Both the position numbers and the translations under genes were made by a program. The notes beneath the pieces were generated by a model, which saw only the letters and a program-made list of their open reading frames with translations, made no database searches and had not been told where the DNA came from. Shown here piece after piece: positions 12,661 to 43,960 of a DNA stretch of 64,000 bases; positions within the stretch are counted from its first letter, which is position 1; each line of letters starts with the position of its first letter. The DNA comes from Laspinema palackyanum D2a (GTDB taxonomy: Bacteria; Cyanobacteriota; Cyanobacteriia; Cyanobacteriales; Laspinemataceae). Where the stretch lies: the NCBI RefSeq assembly GCF_025370845.1, contig NZ_JAMXFF010000042.1; one strand, 5' to 3'.

Positions 12661-12693
12661 AGCTCTTTGTCAATATCTAGGAGTTAACACACT

Positions 12694-15446: not shown

Positions 15447-15657
15447 TTGCCTTGACTTAACAAACTATCCCAGCCCTACTTCATAGCAAAACTTTAGAAA
15501 CGATTCAGATTCTGTATGCAGGAACAAGGGATAAAATTGCATCTCCATTAGTTTAGGCTTTGGCTATTAAAATCAGCCTAGCTGTAGGTTGGGTTGAGTT
15601 GCAGAAACCCAACCTACACAAGCATTTGCCTGTCTAACAACTCAGGGCAGCCGATGA

Positions 15658-15912
15658 TCAATCGATTCCCGGCAAGACGCTTTCCTTTAAGGTTTTGAGG
15701 TCTTCCTGAAACTCATCAATATCATAGTGGACGCAAATACCTCGCTCAGAAATCAGTTTTTGAAACTGCATCCGATGCAGACCCAATAGCTCACTAGCTT
15801 TCCCTAAACTAATTTTATCTTGCTGAAACAACATCAGCACAATTTCCAACAATAGCTCATTTTCCGAAAAGCCACTCGCTTTTACTAGGTCATCGGAAAT
15901 CACTAAACTCAT
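15658..15912 (-). CDS. UPF0175-family putative antitoxin (partner of DUF3368/PIN toxins). No partner is present.
   Basis: 84-aa protein ...LEIVLMLFQQDKISLGKASELLGLHRMQFQKLISERGICVHYDIDEFQEDLKTL, the typical UPF0175 pattern. Confidence 0.5.
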   Translation of the reverse strand: MSLVISDDLVKASGFSENELLLEIVLMLFQQDKISLGKASELLGLHRMQFQKLISERGICVHYDIDEFQEDLKTLKESVLPGID

Positions 15913-15940
15913 GGGGAACTCTCCTGGGCTGAAATCTCCT

Positions 15941-16106
15941 GCTTCAATCTTAGCCGCCGGGGGAGCGATCGCCCTCCAATTGCCGATGCCATATCGCCTA
16001 CACTCAGAAACCTTCTCTGATGAGTGTCTGCATCTTCACCGAGGGCGATCGGCACTTCAAGCCTTGCGCTACAATAGTTGGAAACCCTACCCACTTTTTT
16101 AAATCC
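15941..16106 (+). repeat. About 165-bp leader sequence, copy 1, immediately upstream of CDS 16107. It is about 90% identical to 20488..20655.
   Basis: Direct alignment by eye, running from gagcgatcgccctccaattgccgatgccatatcgcctaca through ggaaaccctac. Confidence 0.8.
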
Positions 16107-16358
16107 ATGACACCCAACACTTCCCTAGAAGAACGCATGGCAGCAGTAGAAGCAGCCATTACTCAAATTCAACAAGAGATTGCCCATCCGAAATCGAGCA
16201 ACTGGTTACAGCAAATTAGCGGCTCTTTCAAGGATGAACCGGCTTTTGAAGAAATCCTCGCATTAGGGCAAGCTATTCGCAGAGGTGATGAGTCCGTATT
16301 AGACTCATCAGAAATGGACAATTTGAAGTGGGTTAATGCAGAAACCTGGTTTCTCTGA
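16107..16358 (+). CDS. Hypothetical small protein (83 aa)
   Basis: ORF beginning MTPNTSLEERMAAVEAAITQ... directly after the conserved leader. A truncated paralogous start follows leader copy 2. Confidence 0.4.
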   Translation: MTPNTSLEERMAAVEAAITQIQQEIAHPKSSNWLQQISGSFKDEPAFEEILALGQAIRRGDESVLDSSEMDNLKWVNAETWFL

Positions 16359-17259
16359 TGGTTTCTGCATCCTCACAGAGATTTTGCCAGGAAATTGGTT
16401 TCTGAGGTACAATTGCTGTAAACCAAAAATCTCAACCCTGCTTGTCCAGACAATATCTATATGAACAGTCAAGAAATCACTGCCATATTTGATGGCCAAT
16501 CCTGGCAATTAGAATCGCCCTTAAACCTAGAAGTAGAAGAGTGAAAATTACTGTGAAACCCTATTCGACCCCAAAGACACCCCCAAGACATTTCTACAAA
16601 CAGCCCTGTCCTTACAGTTACAAGGCGAGCCAGATTGGTCAGAGAACATTGACCAGTATCTATATGGAACGAGAATTCCTCTCCACTATGGAAAAATAAA
16701 AATAAAAAAAAGCACAGAGCAATATCATGTCATCCCTCGCACCAAACCGCGCACCACAAAATTCTGAAAACGCCAAAACGCAAATTACGACCATAGAAGA
16801 AAAACAATGGGAGTTTGCCGAAATCTGGGTAGACCCTTGGCTTTCACCCCCTCATATTCTGATGTTAGTTAAAGAACAATCCGGTAAATTCTCAATTCAA
16901 AATCCCGCAGAAAACTATAAATCTATCTTTACCAGTGATACTTACGAAGAAAGTCAAATGTGGTTGCTGGAAGATAAATACGAACGAGTCACAGGCCGGT
17001 TTGGGCAACCGGAGTAAAAGCAAGGCGATCGCCTTTTGTTAGAGGGGTAGGTTGGGTTGAGGAAGGAAACCCAATGCCCACAAATATTTACCATAGAAAC
17101 TCAACCATTCCCTCCGGGATGTAAAAGCGATCGCGCCCATCCTCCAATGGTTGTAACATAGATATAGAAACCCGGTTTCTCCTGGGGATGCACTCTCTTA
17201 AGCGAGGTGTCACTAGAAACCCGGTTTCTCGGCATATACCGATCGCCTTTAATCTGCCA

Positions 17260-17404
17260 TTACAACCCCACCACTCGTGTTTCAGCTTGTCTGAAAGACT
17301 TGGGTTTTACTACGATTTCTACATCCCGACCCAACGCATTTAAAAAACGAAACAACCGAGTAGTGGAAAAAGCCGATAGCTTGCCATTCACTAATGCCGC
17401 CACT
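17260..17404 (-). pseudogene. 3' fragment of a higA-like HTH antitoxin gene, separated from its 5' part by the IS insertion
   Basis: The translation ...KVAALVNGKLSAFSTTRLFRFLNALGRDVEIVVKPK looks like a HigA-type (HTH/Xre) C-terminus, judged from recalled HigA sequences rather than an alignment. Removing the IS plus one TSD copy joins it in frame to the 5' part at 19448..19626. Confidence 0.55.
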
Positions 17405-17410
17405 TTAATC

Positions 17411-19447
17411 CTTACGGTTCGCTCATTTTTGACCCTACTCCCTGAGATGGGAAACCATAACAGAAGGCTCACCCGAAGTGGAAGGGGGTGGCCCCTCATC
17501 GTCGGCCAAGTTCGTATAAATCTTTAGGGGAATATTTAGACGAATTAAAATTTGTTGGTGAATGGGAGAAAATTTGGTAAGATAGCGATTGCCTCCAAGA
17601 GCTATTGGAACCGAAACCAAGCTAATTTCTTTAAAGGCTGCCAACAAGAGTTCGGAACTAGGTCTGGCAGTTTTCCGTTTGGGGTTGCCGGGGTAAATTC
17701 CTGAAATTTTTTCATCATTTTTACTCAAACTTCGGCGCATCTCAAATTCTAAAAGTGTTAAGAGGCGTAATCCAATGGATAGCAATCGGATGAGCCCGAT
17801 AATATGGTCTTCTCTTTGTAAATACATCGGAGTCAAAGATAAAGGGAATCCTTTCATTCTGCCGAACCCTTTTTCAACTAAATATTCATCCCGATAAACT
17901 AGGACTCCATCAGTGACTGACAACTGCTCGGATGGTGAATTAGTAGCATAAACTCTCCAAGAACAACTGGTGAGTTTTTGGGTTAAAGCCTCGGATAATA
18001 CCTGGACACTTAAAGTTACTAACTCTTCTTTAATGATTTGAGCCGGTTGACCTTTGTACGCCCTCCGTTGAGAGATTTTCCTCTCGGTCGCATACTCAAC
18101 GTTCAACAATCCCTCTACCTGATATTTTTCGATTATTCTTTCGACTTCGTTCTGGTAAGAGCTTAAACCAATCAACCGTTTTTTACCTTTTCTGGGTTGA
18201 TTTAATTGCTCCAGTTCTAGTTGAGCTTGTTGGACTCGCTCTTTTAACGAGTTTTGGGCCGCATTAGCTATCTTGATTGACCTGACTACTAGATGTCGTT
18301 CTTTCCAGTTGATTTTGTTTCCTTCAAACTCTGCCATCTGCTCGACTTCTATTTCAAAGGCTTCCGCTATTTTAGTCGGCTCACCCGAATCTAAATCTCT
18401 ATAAACCTCGGTTAATTCTTGAGCGGTCTGTTCTCGCTCCATTAAATAACTGGTGAGAACGGATTCAGGAATTTGAGTGGCACTCAAGGGAACTAGATAA
18501 TAATCTCCCTGTTCATGAATAAACCAGCGTGTTTGCATTGCCCCCATCTTACTGTCGCCTACATACAATAGTCCAGTTTTTTTCAGGGTTTCTCTGACTC
18601 GGGTAATGGCCGGACAATATAAAGGGTCGTCGGCTTTATTTCCCGCTACTATGTCCGTGGCCACTGGCATTCCCAAGGGGTCTAGGGTGGCCAGCATCAC
18701 TTTAATTTGAGCTAAATCGGGTCGATGATCTTTACTGTACCCGTATTGAAATAATCCTTGTTCATTCACGCCACAGTATGAAGATGCAGTGGTAGGATCT
18801 AGGCGGACTCTCTCGGCTTTTAAGTCATATGCTTGTATGAGGTTACCCCCCAGTTCTTGCTCAAACTTTTCCCAATGCAAGGAGTCACTTAGGTATCGCA
18901 ATACGGCTTGTAATCGGTCATCACTTAAATCTAAGGCTCTAATAGCAGTCCCGGTAGAAATACTTAACGTCTCTAACCGATTTTCTGCCCAAGACTGAAC
19001 ATGACTTAATCGATGGTCGGCCTGTGATAAAATGTAACTCAACCATACTACAGCTACCCATCCTAGACTTATTCCTTGCCAGTTCCCATGAGTCATGAAG
19101 TGTTTGTCTAGTAGCGGTTGGATTCCCATTCGCTCCAATACTGCTAGTAATACAGGGATGTCATCTACTCTTTCGACGTCGAATTCTTCGTTGTTGTTCA
19201 TCCCTATGTCCTGCCTACACTACAAAGGTTTGAGCTACAATACCCAGGCTCTTGAGGAGTCCTGATGTTAAGATAATCCTCTATTTTACACTAAAAGCTG
19301 GTCAACTCCATCTGGAGTTTTTAATACAAGTCTCTCTTCCTTTAACTTTCCTCCTATTTTTGAATGAACGCTCGGTTATTTTCTAGTCATAAGGAAAGGA
19401 TTAAATTGCCATCTTTTGTACTTCTTTAAAAATGAGCGAACCGTAAG
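17411..19447 (-). mobile_element. Insertion sequence, IS1634/IS4-family-like, about 2.04 kb. It has ~25-bp imperfect terminal inverted repeats and a 6-bp target site duplication, TTAATC.
   Basis: Left end cttacggttcgctcattttt (17411-17430). Right end aaaaatgagcgaaccgtaag (19428-19447) is its reverse complement. TTAATC flanks both ends (17405-17410 and 19448-19453). Confidence 0.75.
17435..19201 (-). CDS. DDE transposase (IS1634/IS4 family-like, 588 aa)
   Basis: Single long ORF filling the IS. Transposase-like length and composition. Family assignment is from memory of IS1634-type proteins and is tentative. Confidence 0.7.
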   Translation of the reverse strand: MNNNEEFDVERVDDIPVLLAVLERMGIQPLLDKHFMTHGNWQGISLGWVAVVWLSYILSQADHRLSHVQSWAENRLETLSISTGTAIRALDLSDDRLQAVLRYLSDSLHWEKFEQELGGNLIQAYDLKAERVRLDPTTASSYCGVNEQGLFQYGYSKDHRPDLAQIKVMLATLDPLGMPVATDIVAGNKADDPLYCPAITRVRETLKKTGLLYVGDSKMGAMQTRWFIHEQGDYYLVPLSATQIPESVLTSYLMEREQTAQELTEVYRDLDSGEPTKIAEAFEIEVEQMAEFEGNKINWKERHLVVRSIKIANAAQNSLKERVQQAQLELEQLNQPRKGKKRLIGLSSYQNEVERIIEKYQVEGLLNVEYATERKISQRRAYKGQPAQIIKEELVTLSVQVLSEALTQKLTSCSWRVYATNSPSEQLSVTDGVLVYRDEYLVEKGFGRMKGFPLSLTPMYLQREDHIIGLIRLLSIGLRLLTLLEFEMRRSLSKNDEKISGIYPGNPKRKTARPSSELLLAAFKEISLVSVPIALGGNRYLTKFSPIHQQILIRLNIPLKIYTNLADDEGPPPSTSGEPSVMVSHLRE

Positions 19448-29771: not shown

Positions 29772-30737
29772 TCACCTTGGATGGATGCTGCCCTGAGAAC
29801 GGGTCATTTCAAAGAGTTGGGCGGCGTTGGGGCCTAGGAACCCTTGAAAGAGTTGAGGATGTCCTGGGGTGGGTTCGATCGCAAATCGTTGGGCGATTTC
29901 ATAATAAGCGTAAGTCCAAGGAATTTGCAGAAAAGGACCCTCGGGCCGACTGCGGACGGTGACGGATTCCTCTACCGCCTGGGTTGCAGTTTGACGTAAT
30001 CCGACTTCCGCAGTCCCTTCGATTTCCGCCTTCATGGGAACACCTCTATCCCGGAGTGCTTGGGCCGTGGTTTCGATATCCGGGTAAGCGGGGGTATTTT
30101 GGCGGTTCACATAGCCGGTAAAATGGTTGACGGTATAGCCATGCAGCAACACCCAAGCCCCATACTGACTCACGGCATTGACCTGTTCCAGGTGCGATCG
30201 CAACGGAGGCATCCAGGGACGAACAAACAGGCATTTGAGTCGCTGGGCCAGAATGTGAGGGTCCGTGGGGTGACTGTCCATCCCCCGTAAGTCTTGAATA
30301 GCAGACTGGCACTCTAATAACCCCTCCATATCTAAACCCGACTGCACACTGGTTTCCAGAGGCGATCGCACCTCCGACGGCAACTGATCCACCATTAACT
30401 CACTGATAAACAATTTCGGCAAATCAAACTCATCCTGTTGGGGATGGCGATAGTGACGCGCATAGAGGTGTTGCGAGGGGAAAGATAACTCTCCCATCTG
30501 CACATAACCCAACCCATCCAGAACCCGTTCCAAATGAGGGATACCTAAATTCACCGTTCCCATCGCCGTTTCAATGGAGAGGGCCAGGGAACGAAAGGCG
30601 ATATGATCATTAGCAACGGTTCCCCCCGCTTCAGAGATGGCGGTCTCGTAAATTCGGGCGTAGGGAACACGGTGACTGTAGTCTAGCCAGAGTTGATGCC
30701 ATAGCGCTTGGGCGATTAATGCAGGTTTCATCGTCAT
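29772..30737 (-). CDS. DUF1338-family protein (short form of the HglS/YdcJ 2-oxoadipate dioxygenase/decarboxylase family). Tentative.
   Basis: NDHIAFRSLA... and ...LLHGYTVNHFTGYVNRQNT resemble the conserved His-containing segments of YdcJ/HglS, as remembered. No alignment was run. Confidence 0.4.
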   Translation of the reverse strand: MTMKPALIAQALWHQLWLDYSHRVPYARIYETAISEAGGTVANDHIAFRSLALSIETAMGTVNLGIPHLERVLDGLGYVQMGELSFPSQHLYARHYRHPQQDEFDLPKLFISELMVDQLPSEVRSPLETSVQSGLDMEGLLECQSAIQDLRGMDSHPTDPHILAQRLKCLFVRPWMPPLRSHLEQVNAVSQYGAWVLLHGYTVNHFTGYVNRQNTPAYPDIETTAQALRDRGVPMKAEIEGTAEVGLRQTATQAVEESVTVRSRPEGPFLQIPWTYAYYEIAQRFAIEPTPGHPQLFQGFLGPNAAQLFEMTRSQGSIHPR

Positions 30738-30759
30738 GCCTCCAGGAATTGTGAGATAA

Positions 30760-31110
30760 ACACCGGCGGGGGTTAAAACCCCCGCCTAACAGCTAAAGTC
30801 GGTTGAAACTGACATCTTGCACCTGTTGCAACAACCGGCGGGGGATTAATCCCCCGCCTCATAGCTAAAGTCGGTTAAAACCGACTAAACATCCCACGGG
30901 ATAAGACGAGCAGTCGTCTTTAGACGACTTTAGCTGTTAGGCGGGGGTTTTAACCCCCGCCGGTTGTTGAGAATGGTGCAAGATCTCAGTTGAAACCGAC
31001 TAAAAGTATTATGGGATGGTGTTTTTAGTCGGATTTATCCGACTTTAGCTATGAGGCCGCCAATCGTTTAAACCCCCGCCGGTTGTTGCAACGGGTGCAA
31101 GATCTCAGTA
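30760..31110. repeat. Several copies of the CCGGCGGGGGTT(A)AAACCCCCGCC / AGTCGGTT-AACCGACT palindromic element family
   Basis: Seen directly. The same building blocks appear at 29053-29280. Confidence 0.75.
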
Positions 31111-31177
31111 ATCCCCAACATTGTGGTTAAGAAACCAGGTTTCTTGTCCCTGTGACCCATGCAACAACCCCAAGGGA

Positions 31178-32497
31178 TTACCCTGTTGTCAACAGTTTGG
31201 CGAAACAGGCGTCGAGAATCTCTAACGCCACCTGAATTTGTTCAGCATCAACCACCAACGGGGGACAAAAGCGGATAGCGGATTTGCCACAGCCAATCAG
31301 TAACAGTCCGTGATAGAATGCCTCATCGATCGCGCGATCGCGTAAGGACGGGTCAAAACCCCCAGATTCATCGAGTAAATCCACCGCCACCATTAACCCT
31401 TTCCCTCGTGGTTGTGAGAGTTGGGGATAGCAGTGGGCTAATTTCCTCAACCCATCCTGTAATAACTCACCCATCTCGGTGGCATTGGCGATCGCCCCTT
31501 GAGTGAGGATCTGTAACGTCGCATTCGCTGCGGCACAAGCAACGGGATTCCCGCCAAAGGTAGTGGCGTGAGAACCCGGGGGCCATGTCATCAATTCTGG
31601 ACGAGCAAGAATTGCGCCGAGGGGTAATCCACTAGCAATCCCTTTCGCCAGGGTAATGATATCGGGCATGACATTCCAATGTTCCACGGCGAACAACTTG
31701 CCCGTGCGACCCATGCCCGATTGTACTTCATCCACCACCATCAAACAGTGATGGCGGCTGCAAATTTCCCGAATTCGGGCCAGGAATCCATCTTCTGGAA
31801 CCAGATATCCCCCTTCCCCTTGAATCGGTTCGACAACGATCGCCGCCAATTCCTCCGGGGGTAACACTGTCTTAAACAGTTGAAACTCTAGGTAATCTAA
31901 ACTAGCATGAGTGCCGTAGGGAATATGGGTGATTCCCGGTAACAAGGGCCCAAATCCTTGGCGCTGCACTGCCTTTGAACCCGTGAGAGACATGGCCCCA
32001 AAAGTGCGCCCGTGGAATGCTCCTAGAAAGGCGACAACCTGAGACTTTTTTGTAGCATAGCGGGCTAATTTGAGCGCCCCTTCGTTGGATTCTGCCCCAG
32101 AATTGCTGAAAAAGACCTTGGCACCGGCGGGAAAGGGGGCGAGTTTTGCCAACTGTTCCGCCAGTTCCACCATTGGTTCATAGTAAAAATCGGTCCCCGA
32201 CATATGTAGCAACTGGGCTGCCTGAGCTTGAATCGCTTGCACCACCACCGGATGAGCGTGTCCGGTGGCGGTTACCGCGATGCCTGCGGTAAAGTCAAGG
32301 AAGACATTGCCATCCACATCTTGGATCGAGCAGCCCTCTCCTCGGGCTACGACTAGGGGGTATCCCCGGGTATAGGAGGGAGAAGTCACGGCGCGATCGC
32401 GCTGGACCAGTTCTTGGGCGCGAGGTCCCGGTAAGGGGGTGACCAGATGGGGCCTCCGAGGTAAGGATTGGTCCGTTAAAATTTTATCCATAGCCAT
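31178..32497 (-). CDS. Class-III pyridoxal-phosphate aminotransferase (GabT / acetylornithine aminotransferase-like)
   Basis: ...[30 protein letters not shown]...[15 protein letters not shown]...[14 protein letters not shown]... includes the catalytic Lys region. Length 439 aa. Confidence 0.8.
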
Positions 32498-32948: not shown

Positions 32949-35900
32949 ATGAAAATAAGTCCATCGGTCCTCCTGCGTCTATTGAGCAAACTGCCTCAGC
33001 TTTGCTACCCCAGAAACCAGTATTCAACGCCATTGCTACAATTCCTGTACCCACTGGGCATTGCCCTTGTCAGTGTCACCCTCGCCACGGCGATTAAAAG
33101 CGCCATAGCACCCTTAATTTTACGGGAAAGCCCATTTTTGGTGTATTTTGCGGCGATTATGGTCAGTGCGTGGTTTGGGGGCAAGAAAGCGGGACTGATA
33201 GCCACCCTTGGGGCAGGATTAGTCAGCAGTTACTTATTTTTATCTCCCCTTTATCCCCAGATAGAAAGTAGTCCGGGCCAAACATTCCGGTTAATTTTAT
33301 TTCTAATGGAAGGCTCGGCAATCGCGATCGCCATCGGTTCATTGCAACAAAAGAAACAACAGTGTTCCCAAAGTGCTAAAACTGCTCAAAGACATCTCGA
33401 ATCGTTTCGGCGCAGCGAACAGCAGTTTCAGTTGTTGGTAGAGGGCATCGAAGATTATGGACTTTATATGCTCGCCCCCGATGGACGAGTAAATAGCTGG
33501 AATCCTGGAGCAGAACGCCTCAAAGGGTATGCACCCGAGGAGATTATTGGCCAACATTTTTCCTGCTTTTATCCCCCAGAAGCGGTGGCCCAAGGTCAAC
33601 CGGAACGAGACTTAAAACAGGCGGTAGAACAGGGACGGTTAGAACAAGAAGGAGAACGACTGCGAAAGGACGGAACCCGCTTTTGGGTCCATGAAGTGAT
33701 TACGCCTTTATATGATAACCAGGGTAATCTTTATGGGTTCTCTAAAATTAGCCGGGATATCACCCAAAGCAAGCAGGCTTCGGCGGCACTCAGAGCTAGT
33801 GAACAACGGTTTAAAACCCTCGCTGAATCGACAGTGGAAGGGATTTTATTTTATCAGGGCGATCGCATAATGGCCGTAAATCCCTCCTTGGAAAAAATAT
33901 TTGGATATGACCCGGACGAACTGAACGGACGGCCTTTAGCCTATATTTTTACCGAGGAGACGGTCGCCTTAATGTTAGAGGACGGGCAATGGACACAGGA
34001 GGGAGCATCGGAAGCGGTCGGGATCAAAAAAGATGGGACAACGGTGATCCTAGAAGCGGTGATGCAACCGACCCTCTATTTGGGTCACTCCGTATGGATG
34101 GCATCGGTGCGGGACATTAGCGATCGCAAACGGGCAGAAGCGGAACTCCAACAAACCTTGAAAGAATTATCCGATTTCCAATTTGCTTTAGATAAATCAG
34201 CGATTGTGGTGACGACTGATGCTAAAGGAACGATTCAATATGCTAACGATAAATTTAGTGAAATTTCTAAATATTCCCAAAGTGAATTGATTGGACAAAA
34301 CCATCGGTTGGTCAATTCCGGCTATCATTCTAAAGAATTTTTTCTCAATCTCTGGGCAACCATTGCTCGCGGGGAAGTGTGGCGAGGAGAAATTAAGAAT
34401 CGGGCTAAAGATGGGACTTATTATTGGGTGGATACGGCGATCGTGCCGTTTTTAGATAGTCACGGAAAACCCTTCCAATATTTAGCCATCCGCTATGATA
34501 TTACCCAACGGAAACAGGCCGAAGAATCCCTGCGCGACAGTGAAAAACGGTTCCGGGATATGGCAGATACGGCCCCGGTGCTGTTGTGGGTAGCGGATTG
34601 CCAGGGGCGGTGGACCTTTTTAAATAAATGGGGCTTAAACTTCATTGGCGCGCGACTGGAAGGGGAGCCTGACCTCAACCATTGGGGTCGGATCCATCCC
34701 GAGGAGCAGGGCCAGTGCCTCTTGAGTTACCAACAAGCGGTGAAAGCCAGCCAATCCTTTACCCAAGAATACCGCTTGCAACGAGCGGATGGAGCCTATC
34801 GCTGGGTGCTAGAAACGGGAGTTCCCCGGTTGAGTCCCGAGGGCAATTTACTGGGGTTCATTGGGTCGGTGATCGATATTACCCCCCTCAAACAGGGGGA
34901 AGCGGAACGGATTCAACTCTTGCAACTGGAACAAGCGGCCCGAACTCAAGCCGAAGCCAGTGAGCAGTATTATCGATTTCTGAGCGAAGCGATTCCGCAA
35001 ATGGTTTGGACCGCCCTACCGGATGGGACCGTAGATTACCTGAGTCACCGCTGGAGTGAGTACACCGGCTTCAGCGAGACGGAACTTTTAGGCTGGGGAT
35101 GGGAGCCGATCGTGCATCCTGACGACTTGGCGGAATGTCGCGAAAAGTGGACCGTTTGCCTGGAAAACGGACAACCTTATGAAATAGAAGCGCGGATGCG
35201 TCGGGGTGGCGATGGCGCTTACCGTTGGCATCTGGGATTAGCGGTGCCCATGCTGGATCATCAGGGGGAGATTGTCAAGTGGTTTGGAACGAATACGGAC
35301 ATTCACGAACGCAAGGAGGCACAGCAAGAGCGCATGGAGTTGTTGGAACGGGAGAAAGCGGCCCGAATTTTGTCCGAACGGGCGACGACAATGGTGCATC
35401 GGTTACAAGCGATTGTGGATGTGGCGATCGCCCCTTTGTCTCTCCATGATCTGCTCCAAGAGTTGCTCGATCGCCTCACGGTGGTATTAGAAGTCGATGC
35501 TGCCGTTATTTTATTGACCAATGAGGACCAAACGGCCCTAATAGTGACCGCCACCAAAGGCTTAGATTTAGAGCAACCCCTCTGTGCTAGTATCCCCATC
35601 CCGATCGGGCTAGGGTTTGCGGGAAAAATTGCCCAGACTCGGGAACCGATGCTGATTGAGCGCAATGCTCATACTCAAGTCCTTAGTCCACTGTTCCGAC
35701 ATAAAAAAATCGAGTCGATTATGGGGGCACCGATGCTGTTACAAGACCGGGTGCTTGGGGTACTCCATGTCAGTACCGAGTCGTCGCGAGAATTCATGGC
35801 AGAAGATGTCTATTTGCTGCAACTGGTGGCCGATCGCGTCGCACTTGCTATTGACCGGGCCAACCTCTATGAGGCCCAGCAGCAAGCCCGCGATCGCGCC

Positions 35901-37055
35901 GAAAAAGCCAACCGACTCAAGGATGAATTTTTGGCGATCGTCTCTCATGAATTGCGGACTCCCCTCAACTCCATTCTCGGCTGGGCGCAATTACTCCGTG
36001 CGCGCACCCTGAAAGAAGAGACGCGAAATAAAGCCCTGGAAACCATCGAACGCAATGCCAAGCATCAGGTGACTTTGATTGACGATATCTTGGATGTCTC
36101 GCGGATTGTTCGCGGAAAAATTCGCCTCACCCGAGTTCCCTTGTATCTGGAAACTCTGGTGGAACAGGCGATCGCCACCCTGACTCCGGCATCGGAAGCA
36201 AAATCCATTGAAATCCATACCCAGTTCAACTCCGACGGACAGCCGATTTTAGGGGATAGTAGCCGTCTCCATCAAATTGTCTGGAATCTGCTCTCTAATG
36301 CCGTAAAATTCACCCCCAATGACGGACGGGTGACGGTGGCGATTGATCGGGTGGGGAATTACCTAGAATTTCGGGTTCAGGATACCGGGATTGGAATTAG
36401 TCCGGACTTCCTACCTCACGTCTTTGAGGGCTTCCGCCAAGCCAACAGTTCCTCCACCCGCACCCACGGGGGTCTCGGTCTAGGCTTAACTATTGTGCGC
36501 TACCTTGTCGAACTGCATGGGGGGACCATCTCTGCCTTCAGCCTGGGAGAAGGTACCGGCTCAACCTTTACCGTAGCACTCCCCATCGGAATCTCCCAGA
36601 ACTCTCACCCCGAGCCCGATTCCGTGACTTGGGACGAGAAAGCAATGGCGAACCATTCGTTCAACCTCGCCGGTTTACAGGTGCTGGTGGTGGATGACGA
36701 TCGCGATACGGGAGAGTTGATTGCTCAAGTCCTAGCGGAATATGGAGTCCAGACGACGGTAGTTTTATCGGCTGCCGAAGCCTTAGCCGCTACCGAGCGA
36801 TCGCGTCATGATATCTTAATTTCCGATATCGGAATGCCCGATGAAGACGGCTATGTTTTGCTCCGCAAAATTCGCCAGCGTGAGGCGGGATACTCTAAGC
36901 CTATTCCGGCGATCGCCTTGACCGCTTTCGCTCGGGAAGAGGATCGTCAACAGGCCCTTTTAGCCGGATTTCATCTTCATGTTGCTAAACCTGTGGAACC
37001 CTTGAAATTAGCAACTGCCCTCGCGGAAATTGCCCAACAAACAGGCTTAATCTAA
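32949..37055 (+). CDS. Hybrid sensor histidine kinase: N-terminal membrane domain (DUF4118-like), multiple PAS/PAC domains, GAF, HisKA, HATPase_c and a C-terminal receiver
   Basis: H-box FLAIVSHELRTPLNSILGW. HATPase motifs (...GLGLGLTIVRYLVELHGG...). Receiver LQVLVVDDDRDTGELIAQVL...DIGMPDEDG. Repeated PAS signatures. Confidence 0.8.
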   Translation: MKISPSVLLRLLSKLPQLCYPRNQYSTPLLQFLYPLGIALVSVTLATAIKSAIAPLILRESPFLVYFAAIMVSAWFGGKKAGLIATLGAGLVSSYLFLSPLYPQIESSPGQTFRLILFLMEGSAIAIAIGSLQQKKQQCSQSAKTAQRHLESFRRSEQQFQLLVEGIEDYGLYMLAPDGRVNSWNPGAERLKGYAPEEIIGQHFSCFYPPEAVAQGQPERDLKQAVEQGRLEQEGERLRKDGTRFWVHEVITPLYDNQGNLYGFSKISRDITQSKQASAALRASEQRFKTLAESTVEGILFYQGDRIMAVNPSLEKIFGYDPDELNGRPLAYIFTEETVALMLEDGQWTQEGASEAVGIKKDGTTVILEAVMQPTLYLGHSVWMASVRDISDRKRAEAELQQTLKELSDFQFALDKSAIVVTTDAKGTIQYANDKFSEISKYSQSELIGQNHRLVNSGYHSKEFFLNLWATIARGEVWRGEIKNRAKDGTYYWVDTAIVPFLDSHGKPFQYLAIRYDITQRKQAEESLRDSEKRFRDMADTAPVLLWVADCQGRWTFLNKWGLNFIGARLEGEPDLNHWGRIHPEEQGQCLLSYQQAVKASQSFTQEYRLQRADGAYRWVLETGVPRLSPEGNLLGFIGSVIDITPLKQGEAERIQLLQLEQAARTQAEASEQYYRFLSEAIPQMVWTALPDGTVDYLSHRWSEYTGFSETELLGWGWEPIVHPDDLAECREKWTVCLENGQPYEIEARMRRGGDGAYRWHLGLAVPMLDHQGEIVKWFGTNTDIHERKEAQQERMELLEREKAARILSERATTMVHRLQAIVDVAIAPLSLHDLLQELLDRLTVVLEVDAAVILLTNEDQTALIVTATKGLDLEQPLCASIPIPIGLGFAGKIAQTREPMLIERNAHTQVLSPLFRHKKIESIMGAPMLLQDRVLGVLHVSTESSREFMAEDVYLLQLVADRVALAIDRANLYEAQQQARDRAEKANRLKDEFLAIVSHELRTPLNSILGWAQLLRARTLKEETRNKALETIERNAKHQVTLIDDILDVSRIVRGKIRLTRVPLYLETLVEQAIATLTPASEAKSIEIHTQFNSDGQPILGDSSRLHQIVWNLLSNAVKFTPNDGRVTVAIDRVGNYLEFRVQDTGIGISPDFLPHVFEGFRQANSSSTRTHGGLGLGLTIVRYLVELHGGTISAFSLGEGTGSTFTVALPIGISQNSHPEPDSVTWDEKAMANHSFNLAGLQVLVVDDDRDTGELIAQVLAEYGVQTTVVLSAAEALAATERSRHDILISDIGMPDEDGYVLLRKIRQREAGYSKPIPAIALTAFAREEDRQQALLAGFHLHVAKPVEPLKLATALAEIAQQTGLI

Positions 37056-37302: not shown

Positions 37303-40300
37303 TTGATGATTGAAAACGTTATGAAAAAAATTAATCTTAATCTTGCTACTTTTAGTCCAGAAACTGAGGAAATAGGATTAAAAAATCCCCCCCAACCCAA
37401 CAGTAGCCAGCCCCAAAAAATCTTATTCGGTAGTAGTATAGTCGGGTTCCTAGCCCTCTTAACTCTCCTGCTCTGGCCCGACCTGCTGGCGAATCTCTTC
37501 GCAAAGGATGGGTTTATTCCCCACGGCCATTGTTATCTCTGGAAGCCCTCGTTAGTATGGCTTCATGTGACATCAGATACCCTGATTGCCGTCGCCTATG
37601 TCGCCATTTCGACTAGCCTTGCTTATTTTGTTTATAAGGCGCGGCCAAATATCCCCTTCCATTGGATGTTTTTGGCCTTTGGGGCCTTTATTATCGCTTG
37701 TAGCATGACCCATTTTCTGGCAGTCTGGACCTTATGGAATCCCACCTACTGGTTATCGGGAAATGTGAAATTACTCACCGCCCTGGCCTCAGTTACCACG
37801 GCAATTTCTTTACCCCCGTTAATTCCCCGAGCCTTGAAATTATTGGACTCGGCGCAGGTTTCTGAAGAACGCCGCTTGAATCTGGAACGGGCAAACCAAG
37901 AACTGCAAACCCTTTATGGTCAGCTTAAGCAACTGGATCAACTCAAAAGCCAATTTTTCGCCAATGTTAGTCACGAATTGCGAACCCCCCTGGCCTTAAT
38001 TTTAGGCCCGACTCAGAAGTTACTCGGCGATCGCCAACTCTTGGAGGAACAACGCCGGGACCTGCTGGTAATCGAACGCAATGCCCGAATGCTGCTCAAA
38101 CAGGTTAATGATCTCCTGGATATCTCTAAGCTAGAAGCAGGCAAGATGGAACTGGCAGCCGTTCCCCTGGACTTGGCGAGTCTGATCCGCCAAGTGGCAG
38201 GGAACTTTGACGCTTTAGCCCTCGAACGGGAAATTACCCTAAGCATCCAGACTCCCGAGTCCTTGGGGACTCAATTGGACCGCCAAAAAATCGAGCGGGT
38301 GGTTTTAAACTTACTCTCCAATGCGTTTAAGTTCACCCCCCCGGGAGGCCAAATTGACTGTTCCCTGTCTCTGGAAGAGGGGGAGGGAGAGAACAACCCG
38401 GTGACGATCGCCATCCAAGATAGTGGTCCAGGGGTTCCCGCGCAACTGCGCGAAACCATCTTTGAGCGGTTTAGCCAAATTGAAGGGGGGAGTACCCGTC
38501 GCTTTGGCGGGACGGGGTTGGGATTGGCGATTGTCAAGGAATTTGTAGAACTTCATCAGGGGACCATTACCGTCTCCGATGCACCCCTAGGGGGGGCGAT
38601 GTTTAAGGTCCAGCTTCCCCTAGAGGTTTTCCCAGATCTCCCTAAAACCGCTTCCGAATCTTCCCTCTGGGAGGAGTTGGCTGAATCGGCGCTCGCGGAA
38701 CTGAAGCTCGAAGTCGAGACAACTCCCTCGATTCTCGTTGCCAATGACCCTCGCCCCCTGGTTTTAATTGTGGAAGACAACCGGGAAATGAACCGCTTTG
38801 TCTGCGATATCCTGGGACGGGACTATCAAATTGCTACGGCGTTTAACGGACAGGAAGGGTGGGAACAGGCACTCACTCTGCATCCGGATTTAATCCTGAG
38901 TGATGTGATGATGCCCGAAATTGGCGGCGATCGCCTGGTGTCTTTATTACGCAGTAATCCAGATTTCGCCAATGTTTCCATTATCATGTTGACGGCGAAA
39001 GATGATGATGATTTGCGGGTACAGTTATTGCGCGAAGGGGTCCAAGATTATCTGATGAAACCCTTTTCCGTGGAAGAACTGCGGGCGCGGGTGGGCAATG
39101 CGATCGCCATTAAACGGGTGCGGGATTTGTTACAGCAGGAGTTGACTTCTCAAAACTCCGATGTAGAAGTCCTCGCCTCGGAACTGGCTTTACATAAGCG
39201 CGAACTGGAAGCCGCCCTGATTCTCCAACAGCAACAGTCGGAAGAATTAGTTAAGGCGAATCAAATCAAGGATGAGTTTTTATCGATTGTTTCCCATGAA
39301 CTTCGCACGCCCCTCAATTCGATTCTGGGCTGGACTCAGTTGCTGCGGACTCGCAATCTGAATGAAACCATGCAGAAGAAAGCCTTGGAAACCATCGAGC
39401 GCAATGCTAAACAACAGGTTAATCTGATTGAGGATATCCTGGATGTTTCTCGGATTATTCGCGGCAAAATTCGCTTACAACTGCGTCCGTTAAATTTAAT
39501 TCCGATTGTTGAAGCGGCCTTGGATACGATGATTCCGACTGCTGAATCTAAGAAAATTAAAATTGATTTTAACTTTGATCCAGCAGTCGCCTTGATTTCA
39601 GGAGATAGCGATCGCTTGCAGCAAGTGGCTTGGAATTTGTTGTCTAATGCGATCAAGTTTACCCCGTCAGGGGGACAAATTGCCGTGGCGATCGCCCAGA
39701 CGGATTCCTATATTACCCTCCAGGTTCAGGATACGGGAATTGGCATCCATCCAGACTTTCTCCCCCATATTTTTGATGGATTCCGTCAAGCAGATAGTTC
39801 TACCACTCGCGCTTATGGCGGATTAGGGTTAGGATTGACCATCGTCCGTCACTTAGTGGAACTCCACGGGGGCCAGGTCCAAGCGCTGAGTGAGGGTGAA
39901 GGCCAAGGGGCCACGTTGATTGTCCAGTTACCGATTCTGCCCAAACCGCCGCAACAGCAGGCTCTCCAGACTTCTTCCTCTCAAGAAGAGGGATTGTCGA
40001 GTCAACTCTGGGCCCTGGATGGGTTGCAGGTGTTGGTGGTGGATGACGACCCGGATACCGGGGATTTAATGGAGGCAATGCTGACGGATTACGGGGTGCG
40101 GGTTCAGGTGGTGACTTCGGTTTCTGAGGCGATCGCCCTGATGGACCAATTCAAATTTGATGTTTTAGTCAGCGATATTGGAATGCCCGGAGAAGACGGA
40201 TATCACTTAATTCACCAAATCCGCCAGTATGAAGGGGACAGCAACAGTCATATTCCGGCGATCGCCCTGACGGCATTTGCCTCGGAGGAGGACCGCGCCC

Positions 40301-40395
40301 AATCCCTCCTAGCAGGCTTTCAAAAACACCTCCCTAAACCTGTAGAAGCCGCCCAATTAGCGAAAGTCCTCGCTCAGTTAGCCTCGACTCTGTGA
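37303..40395 (+). CDS. Hybrid sensor kinase with an ethylene-binding-domain-like N-terminal membrane module, followed by HisKA-HATPase-REC-HisKA-HATPase-REC
   Basis: SDTLIAVAYVAISTSLAYFVYKARPNIPFHWMFLAFGAFIIACSMTHFLAVWTLW...LLTALASVTTAISLPPLIP is colinear with the plant ETR1 transmembrane ethylene-binding domain, including the Cys/His pair (ACSMTH vs LCGATH), as recalled. There are two H-boxes (FANVSHELRTPLALILG and FLSIVSHELRTPLNSILGW) and two receivers. Confidence 0.75.
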   Translation: MMIENVMKKINLNLATFSPETEEIGLKNPPQPNSSQPQKILFGSSIVGFLALLTLLLWPDLLANLFAKDGFIPHGHCYLWKPSLVWLHVTSDTLIAVAYVAISTSLAYFVYKARPNIPFHWMFLAFGAFIIACSMTHFLAVWTLWNPTYWLSGNVKLLTALASVTTAISLPPLIPRALKLLDSAQVSEERRLNLERANQELQTLYGQLKQLDQLKSQFFANVSHELRTPLALILGPTQKLLGDRQLLEEQRRDLLVIERNARMLLKQVNDLLDISKLEAGKMELAAVPLDLASLIRQVAGNFDALALEREITLSIQTPESLGTQLDRQKIERVVLNLLSNAFKFTPPGGQIDCSLSLEEGEGENNPVTIAIQDSGPGVPAQLRETIFERFSQIEGGSTRRFGGTGLGLAIVKEFVELHQGTITVSDAPLGGAMFKVQLPLEVFPDLPKTASESSLWEELAESALAELKLEVETTPSILVANDPRPLVLIVEDNREMNRFVCDILGRDYQIATAFNGQEGWEQALTLHPDLILSDVMMPEIGGDRLVSLLRSNPDFANVSIIMLTAKDDDDLRVQLLREGVQDYLMKPFSVEELRARVGNAIAIKRVRDLLQQELTSQNSDVEVLASELALHKRELEAALILQQQQSEELVKANQIKDEFLSIVSHELRTPLNSILGWTQLLRTRNLNETMQKKALETIERNAKQQVNLIEDILDVSRIIRGKIRLQLRPLNLIPIVEAALDTMIPTAESKKIKIDFNFDPAVALISGDSDRLQQVAWNLLSNAIKFTPSGGQIAVAIAQTDSYITLQVQDTGIGIHPDFLPHIFDGFRQADSSTTRAYGGLGLGLTIVRHLVELHGGQVQALSEGEGQGATLIVQLPILPKPPQQQALQTSSSQEEGLSSQLWALDGLQVLVVDDDPDTGDLMEAMLTDYGVRVQVVTSVSEAIALMDQFKFDVLVSDIGMPGEDGYHLIHQIRQYEGDSNSHIPAIALTAFASEEDRAQSLLAGFQKHLPKPVEAAQLAKVLAQLASTL

Positions 40396-40555
40396 AAGAG
40401 GAGTTGGAAAATCCGGCTATCCACCATTCCCCTTCAGAGTTAAGATAAGGGCATGAACAAATTCGGGGCGAAATGAAGCGGACCCGCGATAAAGCTGGCT
40501 CCCTCAATCTCAGGGTTAGAGCTTGACTGCCAATCCGATAGAAGGACGCAAGGCA

Positions 40556-40933
40556 ATGGCAAAAATTTTGATTGTTGATGACTCTACCCTTTCTCGGGGA
40601 ATACTGCGTCGCATCCTCCAGACCGAAGGCTACTCGATTATTGAGGCCAAAAATGGATTGATGGGCATTGAGAGTTACTATATAGAAAAACCCGATCTCG
40701 TCTTACTAGATATCGCGATGCCAGATATGCAGGGAACCGAAGTGCTGGAAAAATTACTCGCCTTCGACGATCGCGCCCGGATCGTGATGGCAACTGCTGA
40801 CCTGCAAGAACTGACCCGCGCTTCCGTGATGGCAGCCGGAGCATTGGGATATCTGACTAAACCCTATAATCCCGATGCGGTTCTGGAGATGGTCAATCAG
40901 GTCCTCCAAGGAATCCCGGGAGGGGTAGGATGA
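40556..40933 (+). CDS. CheY-like single-domain response regulator
   Basis: MAKILIVDDSTLSRGIL...DLVLLDIAMPDMQG...YLTKP receiver signature. Confidence 0.8.
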   Translation: MAKILIVDDSTLSRGILRRILQTEGYSIIEAKNGLMGIESYYIEKPDLVLLDIAMPDMQGTEVLEKLLAFDDRARIVMATADLQELTRASVMAAGALGYLTKPYNPDAVLEMVNQVLQGIPGGVG

Positions 40934-41574
40934 AGCTGACAGAAACCCAACAGGATGCCTTAAGCGAACTGCTGAATATGGGTTTCGCTCGCACCGCCTC
41001 GGCCCTCTCAGAACTTACGGGTCATCGGGTGTTATTAGAGGTTCCCGAGGTTTCCATTCACCCGATTGAAGCACTCAGTGCCAAACTCGGGACCTTTGTC
41101 AAGGGTGAAATTGCCACAGTCCAGCAAATTTTTACGGGACGGGTTTCAGGCAATGCCCTGTTATTGTTGAACTATGATGGGGCGGTGCAACTGACCGAGT
41201 TGGTCACTCCCGAACAAGATATCCATCGCGATCGCCTCGATGCTTCGGCGGCAGAAGTGCTCACGGAAATTGGCAATATTTTACTCAACGCCTGCCTGAG
41301 TGTCTTTGGAAATTTGTTACAAATGCAAATCTCCTTTTCCGTTCCTCGGTTACATTTAGAAGCCTTAGATGGGTTACTCCATTCTCTGAGCATTGGTAAG
41401 GCGGAAATGCGGTATGCAATGGTGGTTTATACCGGATTTCGGATGAAGGAAAATTCCATTCACGGGTATTTAGTTATGGTCTTGAGTGTGGTCTCTTTAG
41501 AGAAATTACTCGAAGAGATTGATAAGTGGGCCAGTGAGGAGATAGCGCCCCCTAACCTTTCCATTTCTTCATAA
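40930..41574 (+). CDS. CheC/CheX-like CheY-P phosphatase. The start overlaps the CheY stop (ATGA).
   Basis: DALSELLNMGFARTASALSELTG is the CheC-type signature. Length 214 aa. Confidence 0.55.
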   Translation: MKLTETQQDALSELLNMGFARTASALSELTGHRVLLEVPEVSIHPIEALSAKLGTFVKGEIATVQQIFTGRVSGNALLLLNYDGAVQLTELVTPEQDIHRDRLDASAAEVLTEIGNILLNACLSVFGNLLQMQISFSVPRLHLEALDGLLHSLSIGKAEMRYAMVVYTGFRMKENSIHGYLVMVLSVVSLEKLLEEIDKWASEEIAPPNLSISS

Positions 41575-41614
41575 TGGAATAATCATATTGAGCTGACAAC
41601 AAGGGCTATAGAAA

Positions 41615-43960
41615 ATGAGCAGGATCACCGACCCTTTAAACTCTAATCAGGACCTCCTTCACTGGGTCAATGACTTAGCCGACCGAGGAATATTTACGAC
41701 CGATGCAGCGTTGAATATCCAAAGTTGGAATCATTGGCTGGAACTTTATAGTGGGTTGAATGGGGAGCGGGTGGTGGGGAGAAATTTACTAGAAATTTAT
41801 CCGGAATTAAAGCACCGGCGATTAGATCGATTTTTTCACCAAGCTCTCGCCGGACAAGTGGCTCTGCTCTCTCAGCGCTTACATGAATTTTTGTTACCCA
41901 TGCTCCCCGCCGATGTTTATAAGGGTGTGCCTTATATGCTCCAAAGTGCCCGGATTGCTCCGATTGTGGAAGAATCTCGGGTGATTGGCACGATCGCCAC
42001 TATTGAAGATGTTACAGAACGGGTCCTGCGGGAGTCGGAACTCCAACATCAAATTAAGGAATTAAAACGGACTGAATCGGCGCTGATCGCGACTCAAACC
42101 CAGTTTCAATATTTGTTGTCTTCTAGTCCGGCAGTGATTTATACCTGCCCCCATGATCAGCCCTATTGTCCGACTTTTGTGAGTGAGAATATTCTGGAAC
42201 ATCTGGGATATCGACCGGAAGAAATTATCGGGGACTGCTCGTTTTGGCGCGATCGCCTTCATCCCGATGATGCACCGGAACTATTCTCCAGCATCAAACA
42301 GTTGTACCAGACGGGTCATTCCCTCAGCGAGTATCGGTTCCAGCACTCCGACGGCAGCTATGGATGGGTGCGAGATGAAATGAAGCTGATTTGCCGGGGA
42401 CCGAAGCAGGGTGAAGAAATTGTGGGGGCGTTATATGATATCACCGAGCGCAAACGCGCCGAAGAACAGGTGCGCCAGCAGGCCGCCCTCCTGGACGTTG
42501 CCACCGATGCAATTTGGGTCAAAGACCTTGATCAGAATATTCGGTTTTGGAATAAAGGGGCAGAAAAATTATATGGTTGGACCCGCCAGGAAGCGATCGC
42601 CCAAACCAGCAGTCAGCTGTTTGATGTTAAAAGCGCTACAGAACTCAACAGCGTGGAGCAAACGGTCCTCACAACGGGGGAATGGCATGGAGAGTTAGAG
42701 CAAGTCACCAAATCGGGTAAATGCATCACCGTTGCCAGTCGCCAGACCCTGGTGCGGGACGAGCGCGATCGCCCCCGTGCCATCCTCGCGGTGAATACGG
42801 ATATTACCGATAAAAAACAACTAGAAGCCCAGTTTTTGCGAGCGCAACGCCTCGAAAGTATCGGCACCTTAGCCAGTGGCATTGCCCATGATTTGAACAA
42901 TATTCTCACCCCCATTTTAGGGGCGGTGCAACTGCTGCAAATGTTTCCCTTAAACGCCCAGCAAATGCGCTTAATTTCCATGCTAGAAATTAATACCTTG
43001 CGCGGCGCGGACCTGCTGAAACAAGTGCTTTCTTTTGCTAAAGGGTTAGATGGCGATCGCACCCTGCTCCAACTCAAACACCTGATTGATGAAATCACGG
43101 CGATCGCCCGGGAAACCTTTCCCAAATCCATTGAAATTTCCACGGCGATCGACCCCCAACTCTGGTTAGTTTCCGGGGACCCGACTCATCTCCATCAAAT
43201 CCTGATGAATCTGTGCGTCAATGCTCGCGATGCCATGCCCACCGGGGGCATTTTATCCATTGAAGCTCAAAATATCACCCTCACCCCATCCCAGTTAATC
43301 CTAGACCCGGAGGCTAAAGTTGGCCCTTATATTAAACTCACGGTTCGAGATACCGGAACCGGCATCCCTCCGGAAATTTTAGGCCGCTTATTTGAACCTT
43401 TTTTTACCACCAAAGGATTAGGAAAAGGCACCGGATTAGGGTTGCCCACGGTTCGAGGCATCGTTAAAAATCATGGCGGGTTTTTATTGGTTTCCAGTCA
43501 AGTTGAGAAAGGCACCGCCTTCACCGTGTACTTGCCTGCAATTCAGGGAACTCCAGCTCTCACTTCAGAACCCACCGAACTCTGTTTTGGCTCCGGTGAG
43601 TTAATTTTAGTCGTAGATGATGAAGTTGCCATCTGCGAAATTGCTCAAGCCCTCCTGCAAAAATTTGGCTATCATGTTTTAACCGCTGCTGATGGCATGG
43701 AAGCCATTTCCCTCTACAGTCAACGGTCCTCAGAAATTGCCGTGGTGATTCTGGATATGATGATGCCTTTAATGGATGGAGCGCTCACTTTAAAAGCCCT
43801 TCAAAAAATTAATCCCTCAGTTAAAATTATTGCCGTGAGCGGACTCGTCAGCAATCTTCCCCTCTCTAAATCGGGAGAAAATACTTCCCCCACCTATTTA
43901 TCTAAACCCTATAAAACCCGCGATTTACTACGCTTAATCCGCCAACAGATTGAGCCATAA
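41615..43960 (+). CDS. Cytoplasmic PAS-PAS-HisKA-HATPase-REC hybrid histidine kinase
   Basis: ESIGTLASGIAHDLNNILTPI H-box. HATPase region (...GTGLGLPTVRGIVKNHGG...). Receiver LILVVDDEVAICEIAQ...DMMMPLMDG. Confidence 0.8.
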   Translation: MSRITDPLNSNQDLLHWVNDLADRGIFTTDAALNIQSWNHWLELYSGLNGERVVGRNLLEIYPELKHRRLDRFFHQALAGQVALLSQRLHEFLLPMLPADVYKGVPYMLQSARIAPIVEESRVIGTIATIEDVTERVLRESELQHQIKELKRTESALIATQTQFQYLLSSSPAVIYTCPHDQPYCPTFVSENILEHLGYRPEEIIGDCSFWRDRLHPDDAPELFSSIKQLYQTGHSLSEYRFQHSDGSYGWVRDEMKLICRGPKQGEEIVGALYDITERKRAEEQVRQQAALLDVATDAIWVKDLDQNIRFWNKGAEKLYGWTRQEAIAQTSSQLFDVKSATELNSVEQTVLTTGEWHGELEQVTKSGKCITVASRQTLVRDERDRPRAILAVNTDITDKKQLEAQFLRAQRLESIGTLASGIAHDLNNILTPILGAVQLLQMFPLNAQQMRLISMLEINTLRGADLLKQVLSFAKGLDGDRTLLQLKHLIDEITAIARETFPKSIEISTAIDPQLWLVSGDPTHLHQILMNLCVNARDAMPTGGILSIEAQNITLTPSQLILDPEAKVGPYIKLTVRDTGTGIPPEILGRLFEPFFTTKGLGKGTGLGLPTVRGIVKNHGGFLLVSSQVEKGTAFTVYLPAIQGTPALTSEPTELCFGSGELILVVDDEVAICEIAQALLQKFGYHVLTAADGMEAISLYSQRSSEIAVVILDMMMPLMDGALTLKALQKINPSVKIIAVSGLVSNLPLSKSGENTSPTYLSKPYKTRDLLRLIRQQIEP

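Follow-up and report, generated by a model that had tools for sequence, protein, structure and literature searches.

Results

An ethylene-binding domain joined to two kinase modules

The 64,000-nucleotide stretch of Laspinema palackyanum D2a DNA analyzed here, which we refer to as the window, contains on its + strand a gene (37321..40395) for a 1024-aa protein in which an ETR1-type ethylene-binding domain (EBD) is followed by two histidine kinase (HK) and two receiver (REC) modules. Judged from its sequence, the protein may well be an ETR1-type sensor of small molecules that sits in the membrane and depends on copper, with ethylene as the leading candidate ligand. The signaling route that we favor, with roughly balanced confidence, is a two-tier cascade in which the sensor would gate HK1, HK1 would phosphorylate REC1, and REC1 would allosterically activate HK2; this proposal draws on conserved spacings, a structure model, and analogy with a Rec-controlled kinase of Leptospira. 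The EBD dual kinase is assembled from known modules and represents a large, widespread family.

The open reading frame (ORF) 37303..40395 (+) was verified in the window. Its product, counted from the second of the two candidate starts below, is 100% identical over its full length to the NCBI entry 'ATP-binding protein [Laspinema sp. D1]', and because of this match, we take the ATG at 37321 as the likely start. Orthologs of 1022-1027 aa that are 81-91% identical occur in Laspinema, Oscillatoria acuminata, and Phormidium pseudopriestleyi; the one in O. acuminata PCC 6304 is 89% identical.

37321..40395, + strand, EBD-HK-REC-HK-REC gene, likely ATG start; the TTG at 37303 is a mechanical ORF start

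Pfam assigned residues 78-174 to ETR1_N (PF25487) with E=1.2e-35 and a score of 122 bits, where the cutoff is 27, and also recognized two HisKA, two HATPase_c, and two Response_reg domains. Our own domain mapping placed the EBD at residues 67-185, HK1 at 205-450, REC1 at 478-602, HK2 at 640-876, and REC2 at 898-1024. No PAS domain was found in the 1024-aa protein by Pfam, and the EBD leads into HK1 without an intervening domain. The overall order is therefore an extra transmembrane (TM) helix, the EBD, and HisKA-HATPase-REC-HisKA-HATPase-REC. A preliminary description of this DNA, made by a model from the sequence alone, had given the same kinase-receiver order, which the Pfam assignments bear out. 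It had also proposed mapping the conserved His and Asp residues of each module; this mapping located the acceptors H218, D528, H659, and D952 and, with the intact ATP-binding N, G1, and G2 boxes, yielded a complete set.

The term 'duplicated', which the preliminary description applied to the HK-REC output, is misleading. Sequence identity is 38% between HK1 and HK2 and ∼30-34% between REC1 and REC2; the best NCBIfam match of HK1-REC1 is LvrA (NF047465; residues 188-605, 634 bits), whereas HK2-REC2 matches hybrid kinases of the TorS/BarA/HrmK/LuxQ type. Given the low identity of the halves and their assignment to different NCBIfam families, a recent internal tandem duplication was ruled out. 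A fusion artefact caused by an assembly error or a frameshift was ruled out too, as the full-length protein is found in a total of >12 genomes and metagenomes and the core in all 120 homologue clusters described next.

Family architecture and distribution

As a family sample, we took the 120 nearest homologue clusters (90% identity). The EBD-HK-REC-HK core is present in 120/120 of them; ∼80 stop after HK2, at roughly 870 aa, and ∼40 add REC2. A subset of members, 1300-1780 aa long, carries ∼400 aa of PAS/GAF sequence between REC1 and HK2. The precomputed Pfam order on three genomic copies agrees with EBD-HK-REC-HK. A rough neighbor-joining tree lends weak support to REC2 being ancestral in the family. 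Outside the filamentous cyanobacteria, the EBD and the same arrangement also occur in Spartobacteria, Planctomycetia, Polaromonas, Bacteriovoracaceae, and Sericytochromatia.

The HK-REC-HK core is found without an EBD as well, in Leptospira, Polyangiaceae, Vulcanimicrobiota, and Bacteroidota-related genomes. At the loci L021-L025 and L028-L030, which lie in Cesiribacteraceae, Vulcanimicrobiota, Leptospira, Polyangiaceae, Thiobacillaceae, and Rhodothermales, the core is homologous to residues ∼170-870 of the Laspinema protein and is preceded by N-terminal regions of ∼150-840 aa without an EBD match. The pairing of one core with other N-termini therefore suggests that the dual-kinase core is a portable scaffold onto which various sensors have been grafted.

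Our literature search, whose coverage was partial so that an earlier depiction is possible, found no paper on the EBD dual-kinase family, its invariant Ser36 (see below), or its linker geometry. Reviews do acknowledge bacterial EBD proteins with 'simple to complex' outputs.

The copper site is conserved

The EBD was aligned with the N-termini of five retrieved plant ethylene receptors and with an AtETR1 N-terminal sequence that served only for residue numbering. The aligned columns were checked on the retrieved plant receptors. When this ETR1 N-terminus was used as the query, all sequences obtained were short plant fragments, of which the closest was 91% identical.

37552..37842, + strand, ETR1-type ethylene/copper-binding domain of three TM helices (Pfam ETR1_N, alignments, codons)

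The columns D25, Y32, I35, F58, I62, C65, H69, K91, S98, T101, and P110 are invariant in the alignment with the plant receptors. The equivalents in the Laspinema protein include D86 (D25), Y93 (Y32), I96 (I35), I124 (I62), C127 (C65), H131 (H69), K150 (K91), S157 (S98), T160 (T101), and P169 (P110). Across the 120 relatives, D25, Y32, I35, I62, C65, H69, K91, T94, S98, and P110 are invariant. The Cu(I) ligand positions C65/H69 thus hold C127 and H131 here and the same residues in all relatives; both lie in the motif IIACSMTHFL (residues 124-133, window 37690-37719). Likewise, the polar pair formed by D86 (Asp25, helix 1) and K150 (Lys91, helix 3), the role of which has been described (PMC10266040), is invariant in plants and relatives alike. 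Taken with the ETR1_N match, the alignment upholds what had first been read from the letters alone, namely that helices 1-3 are homologous to the ETR1 domain and that the Cys/His pair is positionally equivalent.

The AlphaFold2 (AF2) model places the EBD helices at residues 76-107 and 114-139, with the third starting at 143. No PDB chain related to the EBD was found by sequence search, and Foldseek against the PDB gave no match at E<1. The EBD family as a whole is large: out of 1.84 billion, 8249 representatives pass a threshold of E≤1e-3, and 5847 still pass at E≤1e-10. The EBDs of SynEtr1 and AzoEtr1 bind ethylene, and Geitlerinema, which has two predicted receptors (GeiEtr1/2), both binds and responds to it.

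Serine at the Never-ripe position

Ethylene binding by this EBD is plausible from its sequence but not assured, because Pro36 of ETR1 is replaced by Ser both here and throughout the family.

37609..37611, + strand, Ser97 codon TCG at the ETR1 Pro36 (Never-ripe) position; Ser in 120/120 family members

Several observations weigh against ethylene as the ligand. A published list of residues without which ETR1 cannot bind ethylene includes P36 (PMC6586836), and this position is Ser in every family member (120/120). For the experimentally supported receptors SynEtr1, GeiEtr1/2, and AzoEtr1, all seven required residues are reported to be present. We presume Pro36 to be one of these seven. Position 36 is reportedly also the site of the tomato Never-ripe P36L change, said to have been described by Wilkinson in 1995. 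Hence, the Laspinema protein has less than the full set of residues reported as required in AtETR1: D25, Y32, I35, I62, C65, and H69 are kept, and Pro36 is changed.

These observations leave room for an alternative that we consider possible: a sensor of the Ser36 clade that keeps its copper site but does not sense ethylene, instead reporting copper availability, redox state, or another small ligand through the same cascade. Among the 147 nearest EBD representatives (50% clustering), position 36 is Ser in 107, Pro in 30, Ala in 6, and Gly in 2, and our literature search found no tested Ser36 protein. On the other hand, the remaining pocket and signaling residues (D25, Y32, I35, I62, C65, H69, K91, T94, S98, and P110) are invariant, and a Pro-to-Ser change is milder than the tested P36A or P36L. 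Moreover, Pro is kept in 30 of the 147 representatives, and the Ser and Pro states therefore interchange within one clade.

An additional N-terminal helix and a His/Cys motif

Two further elements precede the first EBD helix.

37411..37500, + strand, extra N-terminal hydrophobic helix TM0, residues 31-60 (AF2 helices 31-51 and 53-60)
37519..37542, + strand, PHGHCYLW motif just before TM1; H68, H70, and C71 invariant in 96 family members

TM0 has no counterpart in plant ETR1, and hydrophobic N-termini are found in most homologues. As predicted, TM0 would put the N-terminus in the cytoplasm. The Cys of PHGHCYLW aligns with ETR1 Cys4, and the His-x-His-Cys cluster, predicted to be periplasmic, could be a candidate site for copper handling or for disulfide dimerization. 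A gammaproteobacterial EBD protein carries a similar PHGYCFLW.

Catalytic residues and spacings of the two kinase modules

Residue conservation and the main spacings were measured in 96 family members without inserts.

37747..38025, + strand, single predicted helix from TM3 to DHp helix 1 of HK1 (AF2; Pro169-His218 spacing)
37933..38625, + strand, kinase module 1 (DHp and CA; Pfam), with His218 at 37972-37974
38626..38730, + strand, disordered CA1-REC1 tether of variable length (pLDDT <50 at residues 436-470)
38752..39069, + strand, receiver 1, with Asp528 at 38902-38904
39070..39255, + strand, highly conserved signaling helix from REC1 alpha5 to DHp2 (Lys580-His659 spacing, AF2)
39256..39945, + strand, kinase module 2 (DHp and CA), with His659 at 39295-39297
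40012..40380, + strand, receiver 2, with Asp952 at 40174-40176; present in ∼1/3 of the family

All catalytic positions are invariant in the 96 members: H218, N334, and the G1 and G2 boxes in HK1; E485, D486, D528, T558, and K580 in REC1; and H659, N776, and the G1 and G2 boxes in HK2. The same holds for D908, D909, D952, T984, and K1006 of REC2 in 17/17 of the members that carry it.

The distance from Pro169 in TM3 to His218 is 49 residues in 96/96 members, and the AF2 monomer shows one continuous helix at 143-235, running from TM3 through DHp1. The His218-Asp528 spacing, by comparison, ranges from 308 to 325 residues, and the model contains disordered tethers at 436-470 and 876-892, which would connect REC1 and REC2 flexibly to the kinase module before each. 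From REC1 to HK2, the model again shows a near-continuous helix that leads from REC1 alpha5 into DHp2 (584-610 and 615-677), and this linker is among the most conserved stretches of the protein. The Lys580-His659 distance is 79 residues in 89 members, including the Laspinema protein, 72 in five, and 86 in two. In a wider set that includes other phyla, restricted to direct linkers and a second H-box of the SHELRTP type, the counts were 65 (4), 72 (10), 79 (93), and 86 (2), and these four spacings account for 109/114 direct linkers; the other lengths (40, 61, 67, and 90) come from kinases whose H-box is of another type. The 72, 86, and 65 variants are scattered over several separate lineages, and for this reason we read them from the sequences as indels that arose repeatedly and independently, each exactly one or two heptads long.

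A two-tier cascade as the favored mechanism

A 2026 structural study of LvrB, the prototype of the Rec-controlled kinases, found that linkers in kinases of this type, counted from the KP motif to the H-box, prefer multiples of seven (PMC13269768); our Lys580-His659 spacing follows the same measure. In LvrB, phosphorylation of the receiver leads to formation of the alphaS coiled coil, which liberates the CA domains for autophosphorylation (PMC13269768). In LvrA of Leptospira, H218 is autophosphorylated and its phosphoryl group is transferred preferentially to the protein's own D524 (PMC5863495). The long, heptad-quantized helical linker of the Laspinema protein resembles that of LvrB and is the reason why we favor allosteric control of HK2 by REC1.

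According to this proposal, ligand binding in the membrane would change the register or packing of the helices and thereby set HK1 autophosphorylation on His218, from where the phosphoryl group would move to the tethered Asp528. Phospho-REC1 would then dimerize, form or stabilize the coiled coil, and free the HK2 catalytic domains in an LvrB-like manner. HK2 would autophosphorylate His659 with ATP and subsequently phosphorylate Asp952; where REC2 is missing, as in two thirds of the family, its target would be a free response regulator instead. In this scheme, HK1 would be the switch, and HK2 would provide catalytic amplification.

Some findings weigh against this scheme. The AF2 model represents a monomer, its confidence is moderate (pLDDT 73, pTM 0.33), and its linker helix has a short low-confidence break at residues 611-616. 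The HK2 H-box is SHELRTP, while those of LvrB and of LvrA-HK2 are SHDLRAP; the LvrB mechanism is therefore only an analogy here. In addition, the second transmitter of TodS can accept phosphate from the internal receiver, and the family members with PAS/GAF domains between REC1 and HK2 resemble TodS.

The last two points belong to the main rival of the allosteric cascade, a TodS-like four-step relay (His218 to Asp528 to His659 to Asp952) in which DHp2 would act as an Hpt-like step. We consider it somewhat doubtful. TodS/TodT is an experimentally shown transmitter-receiver-transmitter-receiver relay, RedCDEF provides a second example, and the domain order is identical to that of the 1024-aa protein; the PAS/GAF insertions of the 1300-1780 aa members recall PAS2 of TodS. 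However, ∼63 helical residues (∼95 Å), conserved and heptad-quantized, separate REC1 from His659, so that Asp528 is unlikely to dock onto His659 in cis without a break in the helix. In addition, HK2 has invariant ATP-binding boxes, which a pure phosphotransfer domain could do without; HK2 of TodS, for its part, still has autokinase activity. For the 'internal phosphorelay' of the preliminary description, TodS offers a precedent, but the long heptad-quantized linker favors REC1 controlling HK2 allosterically.

A different reading, that the two kinase modules work in parallel, with REC1 as a sink or inhibitor for HK1 and with HK2 constitutive or separately regulated, seems improbable: hybrid-kinase receivers can have such roles according to general two-component knowledge, and HK2 has PAS/GAF inputs of its own in some relatives, but the strict heptad quantization and the very high conservation of the REC1-DHp2 helix across phyla indicate mechanical coupling. 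Two-transmitter proteins are rare (51/4650 hybrid kinases in a 2010 census), and the fact that 96.2% of them carry a receiver also speaks against a parallel arrangement.

Building on the allosteric cascade, one may speculate that the Ser36 EBD clade, wired by an invariant helix to two kinase tiers, forms a distinct class of bacterial gas/copper sensor, either with ligand specificity or affinity altered at the Never-ripe position or with a catalytic amplifier that gives ultrasensitive ethylene responses. We regard this as rather unlikely as a whole; if true, the clade would be the minimal system for reading the conformational output of an EBD directly as kinase activity.

Gene neighborhood

The gene is flanked by further signaling genes, and the preliminary description was accurate as to their content (hybrid kinases, a CheY-like receiver, and a CheC-like protein).

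32949..37055, + strand, hybrid kinase upstream of the EBD kinase, DUF4118-5xPAS-GAF-HisKA-HATPase-REC (Pfam)
40523-40933, + strand, CheY-like REC, first gene of a three-gene cassette (Pfam)
40930-41574, + strand, CheC/CheX-like protein, 4-nt overlap with the REC gene (Pfam)
41615-43960, + strand, PAS-PAS-HK-REC kinase, last gene of the cassette 40523..43960 (Pfam)

That these genes form a dedicated multi-gene phosphorelay with the EBD kinase, perhaps controlling motility or phototaxis, had been put forward on first inspection, and we now find it hard to sustain. In its favor, the genes lie next to each other on one strand, six Laspinema/Oscillatoria loci keep the block, no terminator-like site was detected on the + strand at 40395-40523, and the ethylene responses of SynEtr1 and Geitlerinema affect phototaxis. 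Against this, the REC-CheC-kinase cassette is cleanly absent in two close relatives, an 81% ortholog (L007) and Phormidium pseudopriestleyi (L009, 86%), where an FMN reductase gene directly follows the EBD kinase. More distant family members, from Lyngbya aestuarii, Leptolyngbya FACHB-321, and a metagenome, occur as orphans: their neighbors are unrelated, and no regulator gene is adjacent. Furthermore, a Pfam search of all sizeable ORFs at 27.3-51.5 kb found no CheA, CheW, MCP, or Hpt. Because the cassette is missing in the two close relatives and absent around the distant homologues, a dedicated motility block is not supported; on the evidence of synteny, we reject a conserved operon with the CheY/CheC/kinase genes, and the cassette is probably not part of the EBD system.

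Among close relatives, the cassette is a presence/absence polymorphism. As for the upstream hybrid kinase, it was seen next to the EBD kinase only in those close relatives whose upstream sequence was available. A promoter and terminator scan of 36.8-41.7 kb gave counts equal to those of shuffled sequence.

Other genes in the window

An 882-aa ORF at 20946-23594 (-) has the complete architecture of a Major Vault Protein (MVP), with Vault repeats (E=1.4e-64), Vault_2, Vault_3, Vault_4, and an MVP shoulder (E=2.3e-55). A 2019 preprint reported MVP homologues from bacteria, cyanobacteria among them (bioRxiv 10.1101/872010).

A low-GC stretch extends over 10274-19201, with a GC content of 0.38 at 12-16 kb compared with ∼0.49 elsewhere. 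It looks like an acquired island and is possibly a conflict or defense system.

10274-11725, - strand, NB-ARC/STAND NTPase in the low-GC stretch
11860-15446, + strand, trio of VWA, PP2C-like, and protein-kinase-like genes, the last two ORFs overlapping by 4 nt
17435-19201, - strand, DDE transposase in the low-GC stretch

Metabolic genes with no evident link to the kinase genes are an AdhE-type bifunctional aldehyde/alcohol dehydrogenase at 6704-9406 (-) and, at 27319-32497, a urease alpha subunit, a 2-oxoadipate dioxygenase/decarboxylase-like protein, and a class-III aminotransferase.

Discussion

The EBD dual kinases bear on the question of how ligand binding in an EBD is converted into receptor output. 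In plants, the kinase activity of ethylene receptors is largely dispensable, and in SynEtr1, a photosensory module stands between the EBD and the kinase. The EBD-HK-REC-HK family, by contrast, joins its sensor to a canonical kinase by a single helix of invariant length, and its output could therefore be read directly as phosphorylation. At the classic Never-ripe position, all members share a natural substitution, and the family pairs an EBD sensor with a putative Rec-controlled second kinase, a type whose mechanism was solved in 2026. Because it is widespread in filamentous cyanobacteria and also reaches at least four other phyla, much of the sensing linked to ethylene or copper in microbial mats may run through this family. 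A consequence for annotation is that proteins labeled 'ATP-binding protein' or 'CikA' include putative ethylene-receptor dual kinases.

Among receptors with an EBD, the closest comparison is with SynEtr1 (Slr1212/UirS/PixA) and GeiEtr1/GeiEtr2, which are likewise cyanobacterial membrane histidine kinases with an N-terminal ETR1-type EBD and have one N-terminal Cys where plants have two. Unlike the Laspinema protein, they place GAF, cyanobacteriochrome, or PAS domains between the EBD and a single kinase, and whereas they are reported with all seven ethylene-binding residues, the Laspinema protein has Ser36, TM0, and two kinase modules. Arabidopsis ETR1 shares the collinear three-helix EBD, with ∼29% identity over the aligned region, followed by a kinase and a receiver. 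It differs in having a GAF domain, one kinase, Pro36, and no TM0, and it signals mostly via CTR1/EIN2 rather than by His-Asp transfer.

For the kinase core, the best parallels are in Leptospira. LvrA (NF047465) has the same DHp-CA-REC-DHp-CA core, and its first phosphorylatable His is at 218 in both proteins (H218, D528, and H659 in the Laspinema protein; H218, D524, and H616 in LvrA). However, LvrA is soluble, has a PAS sensor, lacks a terminal receiver, and has a second H-box of the SHDLRAP type, with fewer residues between REC and this H-box (40 in the L. ellisii relative). At 634 bits, the Laspinema protein falls below the LvrA family cutoff of 1200 and is therefore not an LvrA ortholog. 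In LvrB, too, REC alpha5 runs as a signaling helix into DHp, and linker lengths go in sevens. LvrB is, however, a separate REC-DHp-CA protein, whereas the corresponding Laspinema module is fused behind its putative activating kinase and has a much longer K-to-H helix (79 residues).

TodS, TmoS, and StyS of Pseudomonas share the transmitter-receiver-transmitter layout, as seen in the relatives with PAS/GAF inserts, and internal His-Asp-His transfer has been proven for TodS-type kinases. TodS itself is a cytosolic protein in which each kinase is preceded by a PAS domain, and it is encoded next to its regulator TodT; the Laspinema protein, in comparison, has a membrane EBD sensor, connects REC1 to HK2 by a bare predicted coiled coil, and has no conserved regulator gene nearby. 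Finally, DhkD of Dictyostelium and TCO2 of Cryptococcus also combine HK-REC-HK-REC in one polypeptide. They are eukaryotic and have other sensor regions, and the likeness noted here is one of domain order.

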